32,909 nucleotides of DNA from a virus (taxonomy: Duplodnaviria; Caudoviricetes), in IMG/VR virus record IMGVR_UViG_3300036833_000578, positions 1 through 32,909 of that record; one strand, 5' to 3'. A program made the translations under genes and the position numbers. The notes beneath the pieces were generated by a model that was not told where the DNA came from, did no database searches, and saw only the letters and a program-made list of their open reading frames with translations. Below are positions 13,139-27,918 of this stretch, piece by piece; positions within the stretch are counted from its first letter, which is position 1; each line of letters begins with the position of its first letter.

Positions 13139-13364
13139 GGATCACCAAAAACTGGCGCACCTGCTCAACCAGGCCCAGGACAACTTGAACGAGGCGACCC
13201 GAATTGTTAAGCGGGCGCCGTTTAGCGATCGCGTGCTCAACGCCAGTAAACAGGTGCAGGAGCGGCTGATCGATCCGTTGCGCGAGGCCTGGAACGCGCA
13301 TTTCGCCGGCCTTGGGCACGAGAACCCGTATCAAAGCATCGGCTATGGCCGCGGACGGCGCTGA
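13110..13364 (+). CDS. hypothetical helical protein
   Basis: GGAGG RBS before the GTG start. Confidence 0.6.
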   Translation: MIATRHLSGEDHQKLAHLLNQAQDNLNEATRIVKRAPFSDRVLNASKQVQERLIDPLREAWNAHFAGLGHENPYQSIGYGRGRR

Positions 13365-13698
13365 CAAGCCGGGGATGCGCCTGTTGGGCTGGCGCAAGGT
13401 CGGTAAGGGCAAGGTGATCGGAGTCGCCAGCATCGAGCTGCCGAACGGGTTTCGCATCCATGAGATCATGGTGTTTCGCGGGCAAGACGGGCCCTATGGG
13501 ATGCTGCCGTCGCGGCCGCGGCTCAACCGCGACAAGCGGCTCGTCGTCGACTCGGCCGGCAAGCAGGTCTACGAGACGCTGAACGAGTGGAAATCGGCCG
13601 CGCTGGGCAAGGCATGGAGCGCCAAGCTGATCGAGCTCTGCCGGGCTGCGCACGGCGATGATTTCTATGATCCCGAGACCGGGGAATTTGATGCGTAG
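13345..13698 (+). CDS. SpoVG/PC4-like putative single-stranded nucleic-acid-binding protein
   Basis: IELPNGFRIHEIMVFRG..GPYGMLPSRP...GKQVY, with an acidic C-terminal tail (DDFYDPETGEFDA). Confidence 0.55.
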   Translation: MAADGADKPGMRLLGWRKVGKGKVIGVASIELPNGFRIHEIMVFRGQDGPYGMLPSRPRLNRDKRLVVDSAGKQVYETLNEWKSAALGKAWSAKLIELCRAAHGDDFYDPETGEFDA

Positions 13699-13834
13699 GC
13701 GAGGCGCGGTGCCGAATGGCGGATCGTTTCGGTCAAATGGCGTCCGGTAGATACCCAGAGCGACAGCCGCGCCGGTGATGCGTGCAGGTAGGCGGCCGCC
13801 CTCCCCGTGGCGGTTGAAAACCGAAGGAGAGCCG

Positions 13835-14293
13835 ATGACCGAGTATCGAATGCCGCCGCTGCCGCTCGAGGGCGGTGATGTCGCGCGACCGGAAAAGCCG
13901 ATCCTGTGTCTCGATTTTGACGGGGTATTGCACTCCTACGTGACCGGTTGGAAGGGAGCGACCGAGATCCCCGACCCGCCGGTCCCCGGCTTTGCCGAAT
14001 TTTTGGCGGCCGCGGTGATGCGGTTCCGGGTGTGCGTCTATTCTTCGCGTTCGTCCTCGCCAGCGGGCATCAAGGCGATGCAGCGGTGGCTCTACGACGC
14101 GTTAGCCCAGGCCGCGGATCCCCGCACTGCCGCTGTGCTCTTCGATATGATCGATTTTCCCAAGAGCAAGCCGGCGGCGTTTCTGACGATCGATGATCGG
14201 GCGATGATGTTTACCGGGACCTGGCCGGCGGTCGAGGAGCTGGTCAACTTCCGGCCTTGGTATTGGCGTCCCCCAACCAAAGAGGAGGCATAG
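13835..14293 (+). CDS. HAD-superfamily phosphatase
   Basis: Motif I LDFDGVL, motif II VYSSR, KP, motif IV IDDRA. Confidence 0.88.
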   Translation: MTEYRMPPLPLEGGDVARPEKPILCLDFDGVLHSYVTGWKGATEIPDPPVPGFAEFLAAAVMRFRVCVYSSRSSSPAGIKAMQRWLYDALAQAADPRTAAVLFDMIDFPKSKPAAFLTIDDRAMMFTGTWPAVEELVNFRPWYWRPPTKEEA

Positions 14294-15343: not shown

Positions 15344-15382
15344 AAACGAAAAAGGGCGCCGCTTTCCAGGGCGGCGCCCTTT
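15344..15382 (-). terminator. rho-independent terminator closing the sciP operon
   Basis: 12-bp stem AAAGGGCGCCGC/GCGGCGCCCTTT; U-rich tail on the minus strand. Confidence 0.85.
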
Positions 15383-15406: not shown

Positions 15407-15664
15407 CTATCCGGCGACGAGCCGCAAGGGTCGTGCCCGGCGGCCGCGGATGTCCGCCTTGAGGCCGCCCTTGCCGTGCCGCTCGACGGCGGTCTGCCAC
15501 TCGCTGAGCTCGGTCCGGGTGATCTCGTAACGGCGATAGGCTTCCTCGGCGGTCAATTCATTGAGGCGGACGGCCTCGACGACGGCCAGCTTTTTGCCCG
15601 GTGTCCACCGCTTCACCGGCGGCGCCGGCAGCGGCACCGGCAGAAAACGTGGTTGTGAGGTCAT
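15407..15664 (-). CDS. sciP: SciP-like CtrA inhibitor (DUF1153)
   Basis: LPAPPVKRWTPGKKLAVVEAVRLNELTAEEAYRRYEITRTELSEWQTAVERHGKGGLK matches SciP (LPP..T.RW..RRKA.VV.AV..GL.S.EEA..RY.L..EEF..WQ..I.RHG..GLR); GGAG RBS. Confidence 0.85.
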   Translation of the reverse strand: MTSQPRFLPVPLPAPPVKRWTPGKKLAVVEAVRLNELTAEEAYRRYEITRTELSEWQTAVERHGKGGLKADIRGRRARPLRLVAG

Positions 15665-15957
15665 GGTTGTCTCCATAAGTTCGAGGTCTCGTTTCTCGAC
15701 GCGGGTTCTCCGTGGCCCCGATCGCCGGGGGCGGGCACGCCGCCGGGGTGTTCCAGCACCTGCGGCGGCACCTCGCCGCCTGTGGCACGACAGCGCGCCA
15801 TGAACATCTCGACCTTGGCCGAGGAGATCACGGCGCCGTCGCCGGCAAACGCGCGTAGCTGTGCCACCCGCTGGCGGCACAGCTGGTCCGGGGTAGAACA
15901 GGCCGCGAGCAGCATTACTGCTGCTCCGGCGAGCGTGCGGGCTAATCGCGCCGACAT
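15661..15957 (-). CDS. lipoprotein
   Basis: Signal peptide with lipobox LLAA-C. Confidence 0.7.
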   Translation of the reverse strand: MSARLARTLAGAAVMLLAACSTPDQLCRQRVAQLRAFAGDGAVISSAKVEMFMARCRATGGEVPPQVLEHPGGVPAPGDRGHGEPASRNETSNLWRQP

Positions 15958-16256
15958 TGCTCTTCCTGTTCTTGACGAACACGGCTCAGGCGCTCTTCGA
16001 GCTCCTCGCGGGCGTCGTATCGAGCCCGGTCGATTGCTCGTTCCAGCTGGTGTTCGGCGTGGTGTAGCTGCTCGCAATGTTGCCAATGATCGCGGCCGCG
16101 ACCGCCCTGGACGGGCTGCGGGATGGCGATGCCAGGAGCGAGAGGGACGGTGACTCCAGGGACGGCGGGAACGGGTATCTGGACATATTGCGCCGCGGCC
16201 GGGAGGGCTGTGATGGCGAGTAGAGCGGCGGTCAGTGCAGTTTTTAACATTTCCAA
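15942..16256 (-). CDS. secreted/periplasmic small protein
   Basis: Sec signal MLKTALTAALLAITALPAAA-Q; two Cys flank a charged helical hairpin. Confidence 0.75.
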   Translation of the reverse strand: MEMLKTALTAALLAITALPAAAQYVQIPVPAVPGVTVPLAPGIAIPQPVQGGRGRDHWQHCEQLHHAEHQLERAIDRARYDAREELEERLSRVRQEQEEQCRRD

Positions 16257-16267
16257 TCTCCGTGGTT

Positions 16268-16459
16268 TCAGAGGCGGGGGGTGCGGCGGCGGTCGCCGAG
16301 GTGACGGCGGATAAACGCTGCCTCCTTCGCGGGGTCGAGGACCTCGCGAAGATCGCGATCGGCCGGCAATCGGGCGGCGCGCTCGAAGACCACTTCGAGG
16401 TGTTCGAGCGCCCGCCGAAGGCGGTCGATGATGGGGGTCAGATCGTCTGGGCTCTTCAT
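16268..16459 (-). CDS. small hypothetical protein
   Basis: ATGA overlap with the ctrA-like stop. Confidence 0.6.
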   Translation of the reverse strand: MKSPDDLTPIIDRLRRALEHLEVVFERAARLPADRDLREVLDPAKEAAFIRRHLGDRRRTPRL

Positions 16460-16794
16460 TGCCGCAGCACGTAACCGCGGCCCCAGACGGTCTGGATCAG
16501 CTTATCGGCCGAGGTGAGGGTCGCGGCGAACTTGCCGCGGATCTTGCAGACGAAGACGTCGATGATCTTCTGGCAGGGCTCGGTCGTCGACGGGTAGAGG
16601 TGATCGAGGATCTGGCTCTTTGAGACGATGGTGCCGGCGTGCGAGGCCAGGCACTCGACGAGCGCATATTCCTTTTTGGTCAGACGCACCGGGTGTCCGG
16701 CGAGCTCGACCGTGGTGGCGACGCAGTCGATGCGCAGCGGGCCGATCTGGTGCCGTGCGCAGGCCGGGTTTGGTTCGCTAGACGGATCTGGCAT
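16456..16794 (-). CDS. CtrA-like winged-helix DNA-binding domain lacking the receiver domain
   Basis: VRLTKKEY...HLY...EP.QKIIDVFVCKIR...IQTVWGRGYVLR closely follows CtrA ([22 protein letters not shown]...IETVWGRGYVLR); AGGAG RBS. Confidence 0.88.
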   Translation of the reverse strand: MPDPSSEPNPACARHQIGPLRIDCVATTVELAGHPVRLTKKEYALVECLASHAGTIVSKSQILDHLYPSTTEPCQKIIDVFVCKIRGKFAATLTSADKLIQTVWGRGYVLRQ

Positions 16795-16991
16795 ATGATG
16801 GTTCTCCTGGTTCTAGTAGTGCCCAACACAACGAACCGGAAGGACGCCGCTCCCTCTGCATTGATGGATCCGGGGACGGGCTCAAACCGTCGCCGGTGAC
16901 AGATCGATGGGGACGGTCCGGGGAAGGCCGGTCACTCGGCCCGAGACCCCCGGCCCTCGCGAGTGTCCGCGGGGGGGCGGCGTCGATCGGT

Positions 16992-17029
16992 ACGCCGTAC
17001 ATATACGGCTAACGCCGTACAGAAACAAG
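16992..17029 (-). promoter_or_regulatory. promoter/operator upstream of the ctrA-like operon
   Basis: Palindrome TACGG-N6-CCGTA at 17004-17019 plus an extra ACGCCGTAC at 16992-17000; minus-strand TTGTTT-N17-TATATG. Confidence 0.55.
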
Positions 17030-17045
17030 GGTAAATTAAGCGAGT

Positions 17046-17270
17046 TTAGCGGTCGCGGGGGCGGCTTCGCTTGACCAGCGAGCGGACCGAACGGCCCTCC
17101 TTGCGCTCGTTGGACGCGATCAGGTCGAGGGCGAAATTGATCAGATAGACGATCGCGGCAGTGCGCGAGGGAGCGACCTGCTGGTCTTGACACCAGCCGT
17201 CGACCCGCTCGACGAGCTCCGGGGGGACGCGGAGCTCGAGACGGGCGGTGGCTCGGGGGGTGCGCGGCAT
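17046..17270 (-). CDS. ribbon-helix-helix (Arc/CopG-like) regulator
   Basis: RLELRVPPELVERVDGW......SRTAAIVYLI. Confidence 0.85.
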   Translation of the reverse strand: MPRTPRATARLELRVPPELVERVDGWCQDQQVAPSRTAAIVYLINFALDLIASNERKEGRSVRSLVKRSRPRDR

Positions 17271-17276
17271 CCCGTC

Positions 17277-17304
17277 ATTGTACGGAAAACGCCGTATAGG
17301 TCAA
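17277..17304 (-). promoter_or_regulatory. sigma70 promoter with embedded operator; probably a leaderless transcript
   Basis: TTGACC-N16-TACAAT, then 6 nt to the ATG; TACGG-N6-CCGTA at 17281-17296 overlaps the spacer and -10. Confidence 0.75.
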
Positions 17305-17535
17305 TGGATTGTCACGCAGCGGTAGTGAACGGCGACGGGTAACCCGGTGACCGCCAGGGCGCGGTTGTCCTCGCGCTGAAACTGCCGGGCGAGTGGGCTG
17401 CAGTCGGCCCAGCCCTGATGGTAGCTCAGCGGTTTGCAGCCGGACTGGGTGTGGGTCGCGTAGCACTGCAGAAGGGCTACCAGGAGCAGCGATACCAGGC
17501 TTCTCATGGGCGCTGGAAATCGGCGGGGGTTTCCA

Positions 17536-17868
17536 TCAGGTCTCTCCCGCCGGTTCCTCCGCCAATTGTGGCGAGGGCAGAGGCTTGAGCAGTTGTTCCA
17601 GCGCCGCGACGTGTTCGGGACACAGCAAGCCGTCGCGATACCACTGGGTGCCTGGTCCAAAATCGAGGACAGGTGTCGGGTGCGCCTGCCAGAAGACGTG
17701 AAGGTAGACCCAGCCCCGAGGCAGGGCGGTGCCGTTGGCGCAAGCGACGGCCACGCAGTTGCCCCAGGCGCAGGCGGTGGGTAAAGCGGCATATTGGCTT
17801 GGTGATATCTCGACCTGACCGAGCAGCCGGAAGGTCGGTGCCTTGCTGCGGCGTTGGTGACGGTTCAC
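17536..17868 (-). CDS. putative zinc-binding hypothetical protein
   Basis: CAWGNC...LPRGW...LCPEH; GGAGGA RBS. Confidence 0.7.
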   Translation of the reverse strand: MNRHQRRSKAPTFRLLGQVEISPSQYAALPTACAWGNCVAVACANGTALPRGWVYLHVFWQAHPTPVLDFGPGTQWYRDGLLCPEHVAALEQLLKPLPSPQLAEEPAGET

Positions 17869-17952
17869 TGATATTCCTCCGCGTGTTGCATTAAGCGCCG
17901 GAACAATATGACATCAACCCGTGCTTCGGGCAAGTGTACGGGAGGGGATTTC

Positions 17953-18291
17953 GTGCCACCACGTTGGTCAAAGGAGAGCGACGCCTATGTTGACCGCCGC
18001 ACCGCGGAGGGAGCGAATTACGCGACGATCGCCGGTGAGCTCGGGCCCGAGATCACCGCCGCGGCGATCGCCGGCCGGATGCGGCGACGAATACTGGCCG
18101 CCGCCGGCCGCGAGCCGATCAGTGCCGCCGTGCTCGATGAGCGTCTTACAACCGAGGGATGTCGCTGGGTCATCGGCGAGCCCGGTCGCGGTGGTGACTG
18201 GCGTTGGTGCGGGGCAAAAATTGTCGATGGTAGCTGGTGTGCGGCGCACGCCGCGATTGGGCGAACACGAGGGGGGAACAAACCACTATGA
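17953..18291 (+). CDS. gcrA: GcrA-like cell-cycle regulator (compact)
   Basis: N-terminal W....EG.....IAGELG..IT..AIAGRMRR helix-turn-helix; C-terminal CRWVIGEP....WCG......WCAAH; GGAGG RBS before GTG. Confidence 0.82.
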   Translation: MPPRWSKESDAYVDRRTAEGANYATIAGELGPEITAAAIAGRMRRRILAAAGREPISAAVLDERLTTEGCRWVIGEPGRGGDWRWCGAKIVDGSWCAAHAAIGRTRGGNKPL

Positions 18292-18860
18292 GGCAGCAAC
18301 GAAACAGGCGGCGGGTCGGGGACGAGGAAGCGCGGATTGCACCACCGCCGGAGCGGTTTCGGGCAGATCACGTTTCGGGTGCGCTGGTGGTGCGTTGCGA
18401 AGAGCCGGTGGTCGATGCCGATGGCGGAGTTGGCCGGCCGTGGAAGGCGCTCGACACCTTGGCCAGGATGGAGCGCGCCGGCTCGATCTCGCGTGGCATG
18501 CGAGCGGCCGGGGTCCTCTTTAACGAGTATTTTAACAATGCCGGGTTAGATCCGCTGTGGGCCGCCGACCCAACGCGGATTCCGGTATTGACGATGAGCG
18601 GCAAGCCCTGGTCGATCGGTCGCCGCGGCTCGGGCTCGGCCCTCGAGGCGGTGATCGATGCATTGGTGATGCTGGGCGGGATTTCGTCGCCCGGCGGGTC
18701 GTGTGCCTGGCATGTTCTGGGGTGCGAAATGACAATCGAACGCTGGGCAATCTCGCGATCGTGGTGCGGTCACCCGGTGCACCGCAAGGTGGCGTCCGGC
18801 ATCCTGTTGACGGACTTGGGGATTTTGGAAAATTACTTTGGGCTGAGCAAAGACGCTTGA
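18288..18860 (+). CDS. DUF6456-like putative late-gene regulator/antiterminator
   Basis: LARM...GSIS....AAG..F motif and C-terminal HTH ending L..YFGL; sits immediately before the packaging genes. Confidence 0.6.
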   Translation: MRQQRNRRRVGDEEARIAPPPERFRADHVSGALVVRCEEPVVDADGGVGRPWKALDTLARMERAGSISRGMRAAGVLFNEYFNNAGLDPLWAADPTRIPVLTMSGKPWSIGRRGSGSALEAVIDALVMLGGISSPGGSCAWHVLGCEMTIERWAISRSWCGHPVHRKVASGILLTDLGILENYFGLSKDA

Positions 18861-18947
18861 CAGGGTGGGGTCCCCCAGAAAAAGTTTTTGCCCGACGGGT
18901 GGGGGTGCGTCCCCCACCTGGACCAAACCCAGAACATCGGAAAAGTG

Positions 18948-21152
18948 ATGCCGAGCTACGAGCCGCAGGGCGCGCAGCTGCGTGCCTTCTCCGCCTCCAA
19001 TGCGTTTCTGCGGGCCTTGATCGGGCCGATCTACGGCGGCCGCAAAAGCTGCTGCATCAACGATATCGTTCGACGGGCGACAATCCGGCGGTGGGCGAAG
19101 CAAACTCGCTGGCGATGGGTCGTGGTGGCGCCGATCCGCCGCGAGCTCGAGCGATTTGTGATCCCGACGATCAAGAATTGGCTCGAAGTCGGCGAATACG
19201 ACGACAAAGGGCGGCATTTTGCCCTGCATTACCGCCTCGAGGATGGGGTTCAGCGTCTGATCGAGATCGATTTCCTCGGTATGGACGACGCGCAGGACCG
19301 AAAACGCTTTGGTGTGGCCACGGCGACGGGTGTCTGGCTCGACGATGCCCGGAATTTGAGCGAAAGCGTTCTCGAAGACGCGATGCGCATCGCCGGCACG
19401 TACCCGACACCGCTCGCCGGTGGGGCGATGTGGTCGGGGGTGATCTGCTCGTCGCGGATGCCGCCGCCTGGTCATTGGCTGGTGCGCAGGCCAGAGGACC
19501 CGGGCGATTTACAGCTGTTTCGCCAGCCTGGCGGGCGGACTGCGGAGGCTGAGAACCTGCCGGCGCTGCGGGCCAGGGGCTTCAGCTACGAGGCGTTTGC
19601 CGGCGAGCGCGACGCCGACTGGATCAGGGTCAATATCGACGGCGAGCTCGGGCAAACCGCCACCGAGGCCGCGGCCGAGGCGGAACGAGCAGCGGCCCGC
19701 GAGCAATTGACCCGCTGGGTCGGGCTGACGATGCCCGATTTGACGCCGGCAAGGCATCACGAGCTATTGATTGCCAAGCTCGAGGCCCTGGCGCGGCGCG
19801 AAATCAAGCGTCTGATGTTCTTTTTGCCGCCTGGATCGGCCAAAAGCACCTATGGCAGCGTGCTTTTCCCCTCCTGGTACATCGGCAACTACCCGACGCA
19901 CTCGGTAATCGCCGCTTCGCACTCCAAAGAGCTGGCCGAACGGTTTGGCCGCCGGGTGCGCAACATCGTCGGTTCACCAATCTTTCGCGAAACGTTCGGA
20001 TTTGGCCTCAGTGGCGATTCGGGTGCCGCCGGGCGCTGGGAAACCGCTCGCGGGGGCGAATATTTTGCCGTCGGCGTCGACGCCTCGGTCACCGGCCGGC
20101 GCGCTCATCTCGGCATCATCGATGATCCGGTCAAAGGGCGGGCCGAGGCCGACAGCGCGACGGTCCGGCAGCACGTTTGGGAATGGTACAAGGCCGATTT
20201 CTGGACCCGGCTCGTGCCCGAGGCGACGCTGCTCTACATCGGCACCCGGTGGCACGAGGACGATCTCGCCGGGCGCCTGCTCGAGGACGCCAAGGCCGGC
20301 GGCGAGCAATGGGAAGTGGTCAGCCTACCGGCGATTGTCGAGGAGGAGGGGGATGCGCTAGGCCGGATCATTGGCGAGCGGCTCTGGCCCGAGTGGTACA
20401 CCCCGGAGATGCTGGAGGTCGCCCAGCGCGACACGCGCAATTGGTCGGCACTCTGGCAGCAGCGGCCAATGCCGGAGTCGGGCGACTATTTCCAGAATGA
20501 CTGGGTGCGCTGGTACGACAGCGCCCCGCCGCGTGACCGGCTGCGCACCTATGGCGCCTCGGATTATGCGGTCAAGGCCAATGCCGGCGACTGGACGGTG
20601 CACCTGGTCGCCGGGATCGACCCCAACGATGATCTCTATCTCCTAGATCTGTGGCGCAAACAGACCGCCTCGAACGAATGGGTCGAATCGGTCATCGATC
20701 TGATGGATCTGTGGAAAACCATCACCTGGGCCGAGGAGGCCGGGCAGATCGAGAAGGGGGTCGGACCGTTTCTGACCAAGCGCCAGCTCGAGCGCAAGAT
20801 TTACGCGGTCAGAAAGCAATACAGCTCGGCCGCCGACAAGGCGGTGCGAGCCCAGGCGATCCGCGGCCGGGTGGCGATGGGCAAGGTGTACTTGCCCAAG
20901 CGCGCGCCCTGGGCGCCGGTGCTGCTCGACGAAATGCTGCGCTTTCCGGCTGGGAAAGCAGATGACCAGGTCGACGGCCTGGCCCTTTTGGGCCGGATGC
21001 TCGATGAGATGGTGCCGGGGAGTAAGCCAAAGCCGGCGGCCGAGGAGCCGCGCGGGGTTTCCGGGATGACTCTCGACGAGCTGTGGAAGCTCGATAAGCG
21101 CTACTTCAAAAACGGCCGGTTTGTCGGGGATGGTCGGCCACTGAGGATCTGA
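18948..21152 (+). CDS. terL: terminase large subunit with an extra N-terminal degenerate ATPase domain
   Basis: Main module: LPPGSAKS (Walker A), GIIDDP (Walker B), IGTRWHEDDL, nuclease ASDYA...DDQVD. The N-terminal ~235 aa resemble a second TerL ATPase. Confidence 0.92.
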   Translation: MPSYEPQGAQLRAFSASNAFLRALIGPIYGGRKSCCINDIVRRATIRRWAKQTRWRWVVVAPIRRELERFVIPTIKNWLEVGEYDDKGRHFALHYRLEDGVQRLIEIDFLGMDDAQDRKRFGVATATGVWLDDARNLSESVLEDAMRIAGTYPTPLAGGAMWSGVICSSRMPPPGHWLVRRPEDPGDLQLFRQPGGRTAEAENLPALRARGFSYEAFAGERDADWIRVNIDGELGQTATEAAAEAERAAAREQLTRWVGLTMPDLTPARHHELLIAKLEALARREIKRLMFFLPPGSAKSTYGSVLFPSWYIGNYPTHSVIAASHSKELAERFGRRVRNIVGSPIFRETFGFGLSGDSGAAGRWETARGGEYFAVGVDASVTGRRAHLGIIDDPVKGRAEADSATVRQHVWEWYKADFWTRLVPEATLLYIGTRWHEDDLAGRLLEDAKAGGEQWEVVSLPAIVEEEGDALGRIIGERLWPEWYTPEMLEVAQRDTRNWSALWQQRPMPESGDYFQNDWVRWYDSAPPRDRLRTYGASDYAVKANAGDWTVHLVAGIDPNDDLYLLDLWRKQTASNEWVESVIDLMDLWKTITWAEEAGQIEKGVGPFLTKRQLERKIYAVRKQYSSAADKAVRAQAIRGRVAMGKVYLPKRAPWAPVLLDEMLRFPAGKADDQVDGLALLGRMLDEMVPGSKPKPAAEEPRGVSGMTLDELWKLDKRYFKNGRFVGDGRPLRI

Positions 21153-21566: not shown

Positions 21567-21950
21567 ATGGCCTTTGTCGTCGAGGATCCCGATCGGCACG
21601 CCGGCCAGGTGGTCGCGAACGGACATTGCGTGAGATTTGCCCAGGAAGCAGCCCGCCGTCTGCCGCATACCTCACAATGGCGGCGTGGCGCCCGGGTGCG
21701 CTACGGGAATGTGCCGCCCGGTACAGTCATCGCGACGTTTGAGTCCAACGGCTGTTATGGCAACCACATCGACGGGCGCTCGCACGCCGCGATCCTGGTC
21801 GCCGAGGAAGCGGGCGGACTGCGCGTCTGGGATCAATGGGTCGGGCATCCGGTGCAGCAGCGGCTGATCCGGTTTCGCGACGGCGCCGGCAAGCCGGTCA
21901 ATGACGGGGACGCTTTTCACGTCGTCGAGACCGAAGAAAGCCTCGCCTGA
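21567..21950 (+). CDS. BPSL0067/Tae2-like papain-fold peptidoglycan peptidase
   Basis: GHCVRF...P.TSQWRRG..V....PGTVIATF..G.Y......HAA......VWDQW with a Cys/His dyad. Confidence 0.8.
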   Translation: MAFVVEDPDRHAGQVVANGHCVRFAQEAARRLPHTSQWRRGARVRYGNVPPGTVIATFESNGCYGNHIDGRSHAAILVAEEAGGLRVWDQWVGHPVQQRLIRFRDGAGKPVNDGDAFHVVETEESLA

Positions 21951-23692
21951 TGGCCGATCTAGCGGTTGCCTCGACAGTTGTCGGCACAATCGAGGAGCGC
22001 AAGGACCTCGGCACCGAGCCGAATGCGATCTGGCGCTTCTGGAACTCGCAGCTAAAGCTCGCCGAGCGAACCGACGAGGACTGGATCAAGCGGGGGCGCC
22101 AGGCGGTCGACCGGTACCGCGACGAGCGCGACCAAAACGAGGCGCGGGCCAGCAAATACAATGTCTTGTGGTCAAATGTGGAGACCCTCAAGCCGGTGCT
22201 CTACGGGCGCACACCGGAACCGGACGTCGCCCGCCGGCACAAGGACCAGCACGACGCGGTGGCCTCGCTGGGCGCCCAGATCCTCGAAACCGCGCTCGAT
22301 TACGAGAATGATATCGAAGAATTCGACGCGGTGATGCAGCAAGTCGTCGAAGATCGGTTATTGCCGGGTCGTGGTGTCGCCAGAGTGTTCTACGAGCCGG
22401 AATTTGGCGAGGAAGAGGAAGACCAAGACGCCGAACCCGACGAAGAAGGTAATCAGCCGACATTTCAGTCGGTGACCAATGAGAGAGCGCCGGTGCGCTA
22501 TGTATTCTGGGAAGATTATCGAGAAACGCCGGCCCGCACCGAAGGTGAGATCTGGTGGAAGGCCTACCGGGTATTTATGACCCGCGACGAGCTGGTCGAG
22601 CGTTTTGGCAGTGAAATCGGCAAAAAGGTGACCCTCGATTACACCCCGTCGGGGGTGCATGCGGTGGCCAGCGAGGCGCAGTGGGGCCCGCTGGCGGATA
22701 TGTTCAAAAAGGCGACCGTTTGGGAGATTTGGGACCGCAACCGCAAGGAAGCGGTGTGGATCGCCAAGGCCTGGACGGATGCGCCGCTCGACACCCAGGA
22801 CGATCCCTTGGAATTGCCGGATTTTTTCCCGTCGCCGCCAGCTTTGCGGGCGACCACGACCAATGAGCAGCGGGTGTCGGTCAACGATTACGTCGAATAT
22901 CAAGATCAGGCGATGGAGCTCGACACATTGACCGCGCGGATCGACCGCCTGACCCGGGCACTCAAGGTCTCCGGTGTCTATGCGGGCTCGGAGAAGATGA
23001 CGCTGCAGCAGCTGGTCGACGATTCGAGCGAGAACCGGCTGATCCCGGTCGAGGATTGGACTGGTTTTGCCGGCGACAAGGGCGGGCTCAACGGGCTGAT
23101 CCAGTGGCTGCCGGTCGAGCAGATCGCCCGCGTCTTGATCCAGCTCTATGACGCCCGCGAGCGCACCCTGAGGATCATCTATCAGACGACCGGCATTGCC
23201 GACATTCTGCGGGGCGAAACCAATCCGATCGAGACGCTGGGGGCGCAGCAGCTCAAGACCCAGTTTGCGACCCGGCGCATCACCCGGGCGCAAAAGGACG
23301 TCGCCCGCTTTGCCCGCGACCTGCTGCGGCTCAAGGGTGCAGTGATGGCGCGGCATTTTATGCCCGAGACACTCTCGCGGATGTCCGGGCTCCCCGAACC
23401 GCTCCCGGCGCTGCCGCCACCCCCGCCAATGCTGATTCCCGCACCGTCTCCTGCGGTGCCCAGCCCGGCGACCATGGGCGGCCCGGCGTCCCCGTCGGCC
23501 TCCGTGCCGGGGGCGGTGCCAGGTGGTCCCGGTGCACCGCCCGGTGCTGTTGGACCAGTGCCGGCCATCGGTGGTCCTGGACGTCCGGGGCCGCCGGTTG
23601 CTTCCTCGGTGCCCGGGGCCCGCCTGGCTCCCGACGGCCGTCATTACGTGCCGGACCCGCGGCGTCCGGGCAAATACCTGATGGTGGCCTGA
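21950..23692 (+). CDS. portal protein, N-terminal part
   Basis: YNVLWSNVETLKPVLY..TPEPDVARR; DRLLPGRG..RV; FFPSP; TGIADILRG....ETLGAQQLK. Ends in a Pro/Gly linker plus an unrelated tail. Confidence 0.9.
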   Translation: MADLAVASTVVGTIEERKDLGTEPNAIWRFWNSQLKLAERTDEDWIKRGRQAVDRYRDERDQNEARASKYNVLWSNVETLKPVLYGRTPEPDVARRHKDQHDAVASLGAQILETALDYENDIEEFDAVMQQVVEDRLLPGRGVARVFYEPEFGEEEEDQDAEPDEEGNQPTFQSVTNERAPVRYVFWEDYRETPARTEGEIWWKAYRVFMTRDELVERFGSEIGKKVTLDYTPSGVHAVASEAQWGPLADMFKKATVWEIWDRNRKEAVWIAKAWTDAPLDTQDDPLELPDFFPSPPALRATTTNEQRVSVNDYVEYQDQAMELDTLTARIDRLTRALKVSGVYAGSEKMTLQQLVDDSSENRLIPVEDWTGFAGDKGGLNGLIQWLPVEQIARVLIQLYDARERTLRIIYQTTGIADILRGETNPIETLGAQQLKTQFATRRITRAQKDVARFARDLLRLKGAVMARHFMPETLSRMSGLPEPLPALPPPPPMLIPAPSPAVPSPATMGGPASPSASVPGAVPGGPGAPPGAVGPVPAIGGPGRPGPPVASSVPGARLAPDGRHYVPDPRRPGKYLMVA

Positions 23693-23715: not shown

Positions 23716-25899
23716 ATGTCGGAAACACGGATCGACCCGGACACGGGTGCCACCCTCGTTCCGGTCGATCACGATCCCTATAGCGATCCGCCGCCGGCCG
23801 GTTACTTTGACAAGATCGGTCAGGATCTCGCCGATTTCTGGCAGCAGCCGCTGGCCCACGTCAAACAGCGGCTGTCCGATATCGGCCAGTCGTTTAGCGA
23901 TGTCGCGACCAGTGGATTGCAGCGCCAGGCCGAGCTCACCGGGGCCGACTATTCGGGCCAGCCGTTTATCGGGGTGGATCCCTCGAGCGGCGAGCTCACC
24001 GGGCGATTGCCGGCATTGGCCGAGCTGGCGCGCAGCGGGATGGCCGGGCCGGTGCCGGGTGGCGCCTTGGGTGCGGGGCCGGCGATCCTCGGACGAGCGG
24101 GCCGTGCTGCGGCCGAGGCGGGCAATCTCGACACGCCGATCAGCGACACGTTGCAGGCCGGCAAGTTTGCCGATCAGCTGCGAGCCGAACACCTGGCGCG
24201 CGACAAGGGACTGCCGCTCAGCGGTGCCGATCAGCCGGTCAGCCCGCCGCCGCACATCCAGACGCCGGCCGACATGGATGGGCTGGTCAACCGTTACGCC
24301 GATCTTGCCGAAAGCGGGGCTAATGCCAAGGATTGGTACGCTCAAAGCGGACGGGCAATCCTCAACGCGGCGGGTGATCCCGAGGCCGCCGACCGCCTCG
24401 CCGCGACATTGGCGGTATCCTCGCCGCGCGCGAGTGTCGCCGAGAATGCGGCAAAAGCGGTGACCCTGTGGAACCAGGCGATGACCAACGAGCCGGCACT
24501 CGCCGTCGGCGGCCGTGGTGGCATGCAGATCGGCGAGCGGGCCGCACCGCTGCTCTACGAAGGGGCGCCGATGACCGGTGAGAAGACCGGGCCCTTCAAA
24601 ACCGCGCTGGGGTTGACCTGGGATCCCGACCCGGCCGGGCATCCCTTTGTCAACGACATCTGGAACATGCGCGCGGCCGAATATCCGCCCGAGCTCGGCA
24701 GTGACAAGGCAGCTCCTCAGTACACCGGCACACCGACCCTGGGACAGCACAACTTCACCCGCATTTTGGCTGATCGGGCGGCCGATGTGCTGAATTCACG
24801 AACCGGTGAGAACTGGAGCCCGGAGCAGATCCAGGCCGCGGTGTGGGCTGGTAAGAAATCGCAGGTCGAGGGCACCCCGGTCGGCGATGCGGCGTTCAAT
24901 TTCGCCGACGCTTTGAAGAACCGCGTTGCGCAGCAGAGCTGGGAGTCGGCGCCGGGCGAGACCGCGGTCAACCATATGCCGGAGTTTCACCAGGCCTCGC
25001 CGATCGACCAGCAGGCCTATCACGACGCGATCCGTGGCGTGCTCGAGGACGATCAGGGGCACGACGTCATCTCGCGCCACCTGGGGCTATTGACCGAGCC
25101 CAGCTTTGGTGGGCCGGGGGTGTTTCAGGGTCAAGTGCGGCCGGGAAGCCAGGCGCAGAGCCTCGCCGGTGCGGCCCTGCAGGGCGGCTATATGGGCGGG
25201 GTCGATCAGTCGACCCGCGATCTGCTCGATACCGCGGAAGCCACTCGAGGGCTGTTGCTGCGCCAGGATGCGGCGGCCTGGCATTTGCCGACCTATCGCG
25301 CCGGTCTCAAGCCGGGCGACAGCAACATGGTCGACGTCAACATCGGCCGGCCGCTCAGCGCCGACGAGGCGCGTTCGGTGGTCGATGCGATGCAGGGAGC
25401 GACCGGGAAGAGCTTCTTTAGCCCGATCGCGACGCAGAACGGGTTCCGCTTGCAGAACGTGCCCGATCAATCGGGCATGAAGAACATAGACTTCCAAAAG
25501 TCGGTTGAAAAAGCCCTCGGAAATGCCGATTTTAAAGGGGTTGACAAGGCCGAGCTGACACCGGCCTTTGCCGATGGGAACTACATCTCGAACGATTGGC
25601 GGGAGCAGCCCAATGGTCAAGGTTATCTGGAAGCCCTCGCCGGGACCGGAAGACCCGATCTTCAGAGAAGGTCCTCGGAGCTACTCGCCACATTGGGGCC
25701 GCGCCTATCTCAGGTCGAAGAACAGTTCGCCCAAACCCACGGATGGAGCCCCGACCGAGCCACCCGGGTCTGGGAGCAAAGCCCGCAAATCCAGCGATAC
25801 GGAAACACCCTAGTGCCGGCGCCGCCGCGGCCGTGGGCCGGTGGGCGGCCGCCGGCATTGGTGCCGGTCGATCATGATCCGTTTGCGGCGGGACCGTGA
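23716..25899 (+). CDS. large protein with an HhH-GPD/DUF7178-like domain, possibly a virion-injected protein
   Basis: WY...LAVSSP..SV.EN...GEK..PF...L...VNDIW.MR...WSPEQIQAAVW; LVPVDHDP[YF] at both termini. Confidence 0.6.
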   Translation: MSETRIDPDTGATLVPVDHDPYSDPPPAGYFDKIGQDLADFWQQPLAHVKQRLSDIGQSFSDVATSGLQRQAELTGADYSGQPFIGVDPSSGELTGRLPALAELARSGMAGPVPGGALGAGPAILGRAGRAAAEAGNLDTPISDTLQAGKFADQLRAEHLARDKGLPLSGADQPVSPPPHIQTPADMDGLVNRYADLAESGANAKDWYAQSGRAILNAAGDPEAADRLAATLAVSSPRASVAENAAKAVTLWNQAMTNEPALAVGGRGGMQIGERAAPLLYEGAPMTGEKTGPFKTALGLTWDPDPAGHPFVNDIWNMRAAEYPPELGSDKAAPQYTGTPTLGQHNFTRILADRAADVLNSRTGENWSPEQIQAAVWAGKKSQVEGTPVGDAAFNFADALKNRVAQQSWESAPGETAVNHMPEFHQASPIDQQAYHDAIRGVLEDDQGHDVISRHLGLLTEPSFGGPGVFQGQVRPGSQAQSLAGAALQGGYMGGVDQSTRDLLDTAEATRGLLLRQDAAAWHLPTYRAGLKPGDSNMVDVNIGRPLSADEARSVVDAMQGATGKSFFSPIATQNGFRLQNVPDQSGMKNIDFQKSVEKALGNADFKGVDKAELTPAFADGNYISNDWREQPNGQGYLEALAGTGRPDLQRRSSELLATLGPRLSQVEEQFAQTHGWSPDRATRVWEQSPQIQRYGNTLVPAPPRPWAGGRPPALVPVDHDPFAAGP

Positions 25900-26979: not shown

Positions 26980-27918
26980 ATGTCTGACCAGCGGAACAAT
27001 GTTGTCGGGTTTCCGGGTGGTGGCGCGGTGCCGCCGGGGCCGGCTGGTGGGCCGCCTCCGGGGATCGGGGGAGCGCCTGCCCCACCGGGAATGACCGGGT
27101 CACCTGCCAGGCCTGGTCTGCCACCGCCGGGCCCTGGGGGGACTGCTATTTCAGGGCCCGGCGGGGCATCACCAGTCCCAGGCGGTCCGGCGCCGGGGGG
27201 TGCAGCGCCCGGGCCGGGGCCGGTGGCGGCGCCGGGTATGACGCTCAACCCGGCGTTTATGCAATGGCAGCAGATGAGCCAGGCCTGGCACGCCGAAAAC
27301 AACCGGCGGAAACAGCAGTTCCTGCAGGCGTGTCACACCCTGCGCCACGATGTGCGGACCGGCTACAAGATCGACATCGAGGCCGATTCGACCATCGCGC
27401 CCGATGAGCAGGCGGAAAAGCAGGCGCGCACCGAGTTTCTGCAGTCGATCATGCCGATGTTGCAGATGATCATCCCGGAAGTGCAACAGAACCCGCAGGT
27501 CGCCCAGCTGGCGGCCGCGCTGGTCATGTTCGGGGTGCGGGCGTTCCCGGCGGCGCGCGGGCTCGAGGATACGTTCCTGCAGGCCTTTGTCGCCCTGGCG
27601 CAGTCGCCGCCGCAGCCCAATCAGGGGCAGGGCAAAGGCAACACCAAGTCGCCGATGGAGATCATGACCGAGGCCAAGACCGCGCAAGGCGATCAGCAGA
27701 TCGACGCCGCCAAGGTCCAGGCCGATCAGCAGAAAAACTCGGTCGAATTGATGAAGGCCTACATCGCCGCCCAAGGCGATCGCGCGAAACTGGCGCAGGA
27801 AGGCCAGCTCCGTGCCGCCGAGCTCGCGCAGCAGGGTCAGGAGATCCAGGACCGGTCGGCGCTCGACGCGGCGCGCACCAGCCATTTGATCTCGCGCGAC
27901 ACCGCGGGGCTGGTCTAA
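26980..27918 (+). CDS. portal protein, C-terminal part
   Basis: Pro/Gly linker, then LRHDVRTGYKIDIEADSTIAPDEQAEKQARTEFL...FGVRAF..AR.LE, then a Q/A coiled-coil barrel. Confidence 0.82.
   Translation: MSDQRNNVVGFPGGGAVPPGPAGGPPPGIGGAPAPPGMTGSPARPGLPPPGPGGTAISGPGGASPVPGGPAPGGAAPGPGPVAAPGMTLNPAFMQWQQMSQAWHAENNRRKQQFLQACHTLRHDVRTGYKIDIEADSTIAPDEQAEKQARTEFLQSIMPMLQMIIPEVQQNPQVAQLAAALVMFGVRAFPAARGLEDTFLQAFVALAQSPPQPNQGQGKGNTKSPMEIMTEAKTAQGDQQIDAAKVQADQQKNSVELMKAYIAAQGDRAKLAQEGQLRAAELAQQGQEIQDRSALDAARTSHLISRDTAGLV

Follow-up and report, generated by a model that had tools for sequence, protein, structure and literature searches.

The stretch analyzed here (hereafter the window: the whole 32,909 nucleotides of the IMG/VR virus record IMGVR_UViG_3300036833_000578, Caudoviricetes) encodes relatives of the alphaproteobacterial regulators SciP, CtrA, and GcrA within 2.9 kb. 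In this work, we found that these three genes sit in two separately inherited modules, and a single circuit is not supported. One is a mobile leftward cassette that includes the sciP-like and ctrA-like genes and likely dampens the host genes activated by CtrA. The other joins the gcrA-like gene to a DUF6456-like gene and likely drives the late genes of the phage. We are evenly divided on whether this assignment of functions is correct, and an anti-CtrA role is the best reading of the sciP-like and ctrA-like sequences. The genes concerned are as follows.

15407..15664, minus strand: SciP-like protein, 85 amino acids (aa); DUF1153 at 60.5 bits, matches to PDB 2jrt and 2oa4.
16456..16794, minus strand: CtrA-derived winged helix, 112 aa, without receiver or tail; 41 of 70 host-conserved positions kept, CtrA side of the tree at 99/99.
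17953..18291, plus strand: GcrA-like protein, 112 aa, GTG start; Pfam GcrA at 35.5 bits, alignment to PDB 7ye1_G.
18288..18860, plus strand: DUF6456-related gene (like GafZ and the GafA C-terminus), 190 aa, candidate late activator or antiterminator; assigned via homologs.
18888..21152, plus strand: terminase large subunit, first of the late genes; family matches.

The initial annotation described the trio as a mini cell-cycle circuit, a view that the distribution of the genes does not support. Ten related records were gathered by way of the terminase, the 18288-18860 protein, and a structured element described below, and none carries all three (GcrA was found in three, SciP in two, and a CtrA-type domain in one); only two of them are at least 90% complete, both with GcrA alone, and the other eight fall below 90%, which weakens this tally as support for separate modules. 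The three genes are also together in none of 80 viral records that bear a CtrA relative. In this set, GcrA occurs in 25 records at E <= 0.001 (14 above the cut-off), and SciP in one, a 165-kb record with terminal repeats (G015; L018, L084, and L085) in which two SciP-like genes and a receiver-less CtrA with a host-like alpha-loop lie tens of kb apart and GcrA was not found. Two relatives carry versions of the leftward unit. In L118, a ribbon-helix-helix (RHH) gene, the sciP-like gene, and the structured element stand at the same position before the gcrA-like gene as in the window, with no ctrA-like gene. In L219, the unit lies between the terminase and portal genes and consists of the RHH gene, the sciP-like gene, a small membrane gene, the element, a lipoprotein-like gene, and a ctrA-like gene that is full-length and degenerate, with Asn at the D51 position. 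The leftward unit thus moves and changes its content. In both relatives, the RHH gene is directly before the sciP-like gene.

The families named in the initial annotation were recovered for all three open reading frames (ORFs). For the CtrA-like protein, Trans_reg_C scored 72.1 bits, and the best NCBIfam model was CtrA (NF045991; 101.7 bits, with the runner-up at 58.8), under the equivalog cut-off (102/350). The 70 positions counted above are conserved in 77 host CtrA proteins, and 12 OmpR paralogs from one genome keep 14-27 of them. The best host domains are 50-55% identical to the winged helix, which has kept its recognition helix and wing almost unaltered. The alpha-loop before the recognition helix reads PSTT instead of the host GGMD, Ile and Ser occupy positions 168 and 170, and the chain stops at position 223, short of the C-terminal tail. 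As the stop-to-stop frame has 118 codons, neither a receiver nor the D51 phospho-acceptor can be encoded, in agreement with the earlier description of the protein as receiver-less. In a 30-row tree, it falls with CtrA at the CtrA/OmpR split (support 99/99), and no donor is named; a quick 122-row tree, from which most host rows (all but about one-third and 10 selected ones) and also 16 fragments or near-copies were omitted, places it on a long, unresolved branch. A generic OmpR or transposase helix-turn-helix origin, which the initial annotation had named as a refuting outcome, was ruled out by profile scores, conserved-position counts, and this tree split. A shared capture of the window and L219 ctrA-like genes was neither shown nor rejected (p-AU 0.53), and the trees did not resolve the host donor of the genes. 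Host sciP and ctrA are no more than 6 kb apart in 21 of 80 loci, with sciP mostly upstream on the same strand, which is the reverse of the window order; the two genes may or may not have been captured as one host block. With the recognition helix kept and the receiver, tail, and host alpha-loop lost, the phage protein likely represses. The receiver and tail of CtrA are required for its regulated proteolysis.

The loss of phosphorylation control is a recurrent trait of viral CtrA copies. A scan of viral contigs found 88 CtrA relatives, of which 80 were kept. A recognizable receiver is present in 19 and a degenerate N-terminal domain in five; nine correspond to host-like 3' fragments, one is truncated where its contig stops, and approximately 45 (near-copies included) are receiver-less and very diverse. 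D51 is kept in six of the 20 full-length viral proteins (a set that includes L219), whereas it is present in all 77 hosts; the other 14 have Glu (five), Ala (three), Asn (two), or Val, Phe, Gly, or a gap (one each). These copies have repeatedly shed phosphorylation control, either by receiver loss or by Glu, Ala, or Asn at position 51. Glu at this position, which we take to be the constitutive laboratory allele, occurs in contigs L005, L006, L007, L012, and L022, and L006 also has a GcrA gene approximately 3 kb upstream. Separately, several viral records, mostly proviruses (L028-L031, L034-L036, and L040), carry a 3' fragment of a host-like ctrA, most of them near the record end, and these may mark integration into ctrA.

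The SciP-like protein scores above the Pfam cut-off of 23.5 for DUF1153 (PF06627), and transposase helix-turn-helix models reach only 15-17 bits. It retains the helix-turn-helix core, the RW motif, and a threonine at the T65 position, which was mapped by its 41-residue distance from T24 (both residues are named in PMC4083442). SciP prevents CtrA from recruiting polymerase, and its overexpression abolishes motility (PMC4083442). Other SciP-like genes were found in viral records G015, G081, G082, G083 (weak, 5 kb), G085, and G088. Two alignment scans of viral contigs used narrow patterns, returned one and four loci, and missed L118 and L219, such that the number of SciP-bearing phages is a lower bound; tblastn searches of 50,697 phage records with the SciP-like and GcrA-like proteins found no relatives, and neither did single-protein viral scans. 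The five cassette-type SciP-like proteins group together with a support of only 65. The absence of a CtrA-type gene beside the SciP-like gene in G085 (46% complete), G081 (93%), and G082 (73%) points to a host target. In another phage, G081 (L111:8400-10213), the SciP-like gene follows small exported and lipoprotein-like genes and stands beside the terminase; one of these small genes matches window 15661-15957, and another resembles the L219 cassette lipoprotein by eye. In the window, purine-rich, ribosome-binding-like words precede the sciP-like, ctrA-like, and gcrA-like genes, for which the GC content at third codon positions is 0.83, 0.85, and 0.67, respectively.

The remaining features of the leftward cassette are given below.

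17277..17304, minus strand: sigma-70-type promoter P1 before the RHH gene; 10 of 12 matches, operator at 17281-17296.
17046..17270, minus strand: RHH repressor-like gene, head of the cassette; RHH_5 E 0.007, phrog_4738 repressor E 5e-6.
17000..17028, minus strand: promoter-like site P2 before the structured element and the ctrA-like gene; operator at 17004-17019.
16843..16990, strand unsettled: conserved structured non-coding element, approximately 150 nt; five copies with compensatory changes.
16268..16459, minus strand: 63-aa ORF overlapping the ctrA-like stop; no family.
15942..16256, minus strand: putative exported protein, 104 aa, signal-peptide-like start; no family over cut-off.
15661..15957, minus strand: putative lipoprotein, 98 aa, hydrophobic leader followed by Cys; sequence, weak lipoprotein model (E 0.058).
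15351..15382, minus strand: intrinsic-terminator-like hairpin closing the cassette, 12-pair stem and T tail; position only.

The shared leftward operon proposed in the initial annotation stands: the ctrA-like gene, the three small ORFs, and the sciP-like gene overlap or abut on one strand. The unit starts further right, at the RHH gene, and terminator-like sites (two found, with 3.3 expected in shuffles) are not in excess, such that only the position after the sciP-like gene supports the hairpin. The C-terminal part of the 15661-15957 protein has a relative near the sciP-like gene in phage L111 (tblastn, 54% over 37 aa). The promoter scan returned one site, P1, with 0.5 expected; P2, which the scan did not flag, was recognized by eye from TTG and TA.AT columns that are invariant at promoter spacing in five copies. 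A palindromic operator lies in the spacer of both promoters (17004 and 17281), its only two occurrences in 32.9 kb (0.09 expected), and a related word is found at both L219 promoters. We infer that the RHH protein may autorepress the cassette through this palindrome.

The structured element is likely an RNA and a candidate for a new RNA family. Its copies (window 16843-16990, L118:6900-7095, L219:14255-14465, L225:5019-5191, and L228:9947-10125) have both-side changes in 14 of 46 pairs on the minus strand and 12 of 51 on the plus strand; the promoter favors minus, and folding slightly favors plus. Rfam has no match over the element, and none of the listed runs containing window DNA is an RNA sample. 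It has paired ends and a conserved promoter-like site, and its position varies within the phage clade. In L225 and L228, the copies sit within the virion genes, with neither sciP nor ctrA; the element is therefore not specific to these genes.

A rather doubtful alternative to a cassette aimed at host CtrA is that all three host-derived proteins have been repurposed as internal regulators, which now bind sites of the phage and do not act on the host CtrA regulon. The strong divergence of all three, the abundance and diversity of receiver-less viral CtrA-type winged helices, and the loss of the SciP arm and tail agree with this alternative. However, the CtrA recognition helix is almost unchanged even though the full CtrA box (TTAA-N7-TTAA) occurs zero times (0.02 expected) in the window, which covers approximately 55% of the genome, and the sciP-like and ctrA-like genes are found together in two differently placed copies of the cassette. 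With no such box, nothing here shows the phage reading CtrA.

For the second module, the GcrA-like protein exceeds the Pfam GcrA (PF07750) cut-off of 26.9 when scanned as a 127-aa frame from 17908, and both of its domains align to 7ye1_G. Its NCBIfam GcrA score of 22.2 bits is below the equivalog cut-off of 280. As none of the three proteins reaches such a cut-off, they are diverged relatives rather than orthologs. The GcrA methyl reading requires R33, N34, I37, and G38, and sigma-70 binding involves a CCCH zinc finger with W120, F130, F132, Y142, and Y151 (PMC5887438). The phage protein has Ala at R33, N34, and I37 and keeps G38 and R42; its relatives in L118, L128, and L217 have likewise lost R33, N34, and I37. 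The initial annotation had given the activation of GANTC-methylated promoters as the function of GcrA, and the loss of three of the four methyl-pocket residues, together with the position before the late genes, speaks against extending it to the phage protein. The zinc finger is kept (C-X15-C-X9-C-X2-H, compared with C-X14-C-X9-C-X2-H), as is W120, with Trp at F130, F132, and Y142 and Arg at Y151. A resolvase-like gene, recognized by eye, lies just upstream of the gcrA-like gene in two relatives (L118:7836-8507 and L128:1216-1965), where the window has other genes.

The gcrA-like gene is divergent from the cassette and leads into the late genes, as first described; it overlaps the DUF6456-like gene, which intervenes before the terminase, an order also found in G084, G085, and G090. 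The L219 copy of the 18288-18860 protein has a weak DUF6456 match, and the family was otherwise reached through homologs at 44-54% identity, with three of five chromosomal ones over the cut-off. Of the 20 best chromosomal loci, an XRE/S24 repressor, a zinc-finger gene with kinship to the GcrA sigma domain, and a terminase are each present in 14 (tblastn), and 13 match the GcrA profile. On Stellaceae-type chromosomes, the arrangement that runs from the XRE/S24 repressor through the zinc-finger gene and DUF6456 to the terminase is thus seen repeatedly. This cluster, conserved at L265-L283 on chromosomes of the order of G091, resembles the head of a gene transfer agent (GTA) cluster in which a GcrA-type partner takes the place of GafY. 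DUF6456 is the annotation of GafA homologs (PMC9638019), and GafZ, which resembles the GafA C-terminus, is an antiterminator of the GTA cluster in Caulobacter (PMC11150451). The place of the gcrA-like gene before the DUF6456-like gene and the terminase, the mirrored order on chromosomes, and the lost methyl pocket make a role in late transcription likely, and the pair may form a phage late-gene switch.

It is unlikely that the three genes act as one integrated circuit, in which the SciP-like and CtrA-like proteins would turn CtrA off and the GcrA-like protein would turn on the host S-phase, giving a replication-competent reset. A host-takeover role of this kind was proposed for phiCbK gp222 (PMC3556154), the three genes lie within 2.9 kb, and GcrA accompanies CtrA-type genes in the viral records counted above. 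Furthermore, a 58,067-bp contig encodes the ctrA-like and gcrA-like proteins, along with the sciP-like protein in a longer call, and each protein cluster has a member on a 58,643-bp contig (close variants at 84%, 90%, and within a 90% cluster), likely one sister phage that apparently holds all three. Against this, the full set was absent from both surveys, the genes are on opposite strands with separate promoters, and the methyl-pocket residues are lost. Least probable is a winged helix that mimics CtrA constitutively, either switching on CtrA targets or silencing the origin of the host (a G1-like arrest), with the SciP-like protein tuning the mimic or host CtrA: five viral proteins have Glu at 51, the origin is not a SciP target in vivo (PMC4083442), and positions 168 and 170, which determine promoter class and SciP sensitivity in Caulobacter (10.1101/739516; PMC4083442), are changed here, but the window alpha-loop is replaced, whereas the Glu-51 proteins and gp37 of Roseobacter phage RDJL Phi 1 retain GG(M/R)DEPE, and position 168 is altered in most viral copies.

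Under the two-module reading, the RHH repressor would bind the palindrome in both leftward promoters, and its release would let P2 fire. The winged helix made from P2 would be stable and independent of phosphorylation; it would sit on CtrA boxes and, given its replaced alpha-loop, be a poor activator. The SciP-like protein would keep host CtrA from activating. The two effects would act in the same direction, yielding fewer flagellar, pilus, and late cell-cycle transcripts, and the pay-off might be receptors hidden from competing phages or a delayed division. Loss of the CtrA pathway in a Roseobacter gives cells without flagella and with phage resistance (PMC13392355), which makes receptor masking a plausible pay-off. 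In the other module, the GcrA-like protein would use its intact zinc finger to dock on sigma-70, its altered helix would bring polymerase to a phage word, and the DUF6456-like protein would work like GafZ, as an activator or antiterminator for the terminase operon. The trio would then arise from the adjacency of the cassette and the gcrA-like pair in this lineage.

Several points beyond the incompleteness of the related records weigh against this reading. The SciP-like protein scores 58.1 bits with the NCBIfam SciP model (NF051866; equivalog cut-off 100), has neither the N-terminal arm (T24 region) nor the host C-terminal motif, and keeps 15 of 25 columns conserved across 24 hosts; it may therefore no longer contact CtrA. 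The CtrA-like protein keeps only 18 of 41 CtrA-diagnostic positions. The alpha-loop is known as a polymerase contact from OmpR and PhoB, and an OmpR-type domain on its own is a weak DNA binder. The operator word was defined post hoc, and L118 has only a looser form. The window 18288-18860 protein and its L118 copy have no match to DUF6456 or any other Pfam family, and the link from DUF6456 to GafZ is indirect. Finally, the functions of both modules, in binding, expression, and phenotype, are predicted from sequence.

A more far-reaching version has two parts. One is a mobile, autorepressed anti-CtrA cassette, with a structured RNA of a new kind, that delivers both an arm-less SciP and a CtrA domain that can be neither phosphorylated nor degraded. 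The other is a GcrA that no longer reads methylation and works with a GafZ-like antiterminator as the late switch. We regard this version as possible, though less likely than not. If true, the cassette would shut down pili and flagella and stall the cell cycle, and the same late switch would stand before a chromosomal terminase gene in Stellaceae-type bacteria.

The record is classed as a provirus, approximately 55% complete (IMG/VR record annotation). The window has primase, terminase, portal, and capsid genes of phage type, and no integrase was found among the 34 window ORFs scanned. Near-complete relatives are 56.5 and 59.4 kb, such that the record may be a trimmed whole phage. The DNA was found in soil metagenome runs. 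In run X1, possibly the source sample, a single contig covers 14349-19970 with zero differences, which rules out a misassembly of the cluster as far as one contig from that run allows. Run X3, from a separate study, has a strain approximately 5-7% different, in which 293 other letters replace 30 at window 15655-15686, the start of the sciP-like gene, and this suggests an extra small gene in the X3 cassette. A metagenome scan matched a single 1-kb contig. GANTC occurs 38 times in the window (159 +/- 12 expected under a first-order model), a depletion that would fit an alphaproteobacterial host with CcrM. A weak host clue is that the 18288-18860 protein has a homolog in 176 of 244 genomes from the order of a Stellaceae metagenome-assembled genome, the only order tested (four unpublished genomes included, which contribute none of the 20 chromosomal loci above); the capsid protein had no match at E <= 1e-20 in these genomes.

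Elsewhere in the window, the accessory region encodes a SpoVG-like protein (13312-13698; E 3.5e-5) and an HAD-like protein (13775-14293). The portal model phrog_12082 was matched in two ORFs split by a 727-aa gene and small ORFs (21950-23692, 23716-25899, and 26980-27918), a split also found in L225. The terminase ORF has approximately 255 additional N-terminal residues ahead of the matched terminase region, and these are retained in relatives.

It is known that phages of Alphaproteobacteria can read CtrA and can encode GcrA homologs (PMC3556154), and a phage protein that attacks CtrA was not found in the literature searched. Literature searches, which did not extend to supplements and most subscription papers, turned up no phage-encoded SciP or CtrA protein; term searches found no CtrA in PMC11934525 or in the RDJL Phi 1 genome paper (PMC3070671). 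The cassette offers two small, directly testable anti-CtrA candidates. The gcrA-like and DUF6456-like pair offers a concrete alternative to the driving of the host S-phase, the role proposed for phage GcrA in 2012, and would tie phage late control to GTA regulators.

Compared with known systems, the "lytic deferment" phages (PMC9437464) are likewise linked to the CtrA network but read host CtrA through boxes, whereas the window has no full box and encodes proteins instead; SciP appears in the available portions of that paper only as binding motifs and host biology. The SciP-like protein shares its core, RW motif, and T65 position with host SciP (NF051866, PF06627; PDB 2jrt and 2oa4) and differs in its sub-equivalog score, its missing arm and C-terminal motif, and its carriage by a phage. 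The CtrA-like protein shares the recognition helix, wing, and tree placement with CtrA of Caulobacter crescentus (NF045991) and lacks its receiver, D51, and tail, with the alpha-loop replaced and positions 168 and 170 changed. A phage parallel is RDJL Phi 1 gp37 (ADK73438.1; 45% identity over 71 aa), also a receiver-less CtrA-type winged helix, annotated as "transcriptional regulator CtrA" in GenBank and similar to the 152-position family PHROG 31800; it differs in having 151 aa with a C-terminal extension, a host-like alpha-loop, and no SciP or GcrA in its record (G042). Caulobacter GcrA and phiCbK gp222 (PMC5887438; PMC3556154) share with the GcrA-like protein the two-domain plan, CCCH finger, and aromatic sigma-70 interface, whereas the window protein has the substitutions at R33, N34, I37, and Y151, a linker of approximately 20 rather than 60 aa, and a gene position before the DUF6456-like gene and terminase. 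Finally, the GTA activators GafYZ and GafA (PMC11150451; PMC9638019) appear to offer a similar arrangement, a sigma-70 partner followed by a DUF6456-related gene that controls a terminase-led operon, but here the genes are in a phage, immediately before the terminase, and the sigma partner is of the GcrA type (a binder of domain 2 in Caulobacter) rather than GafY (domains 3-4).

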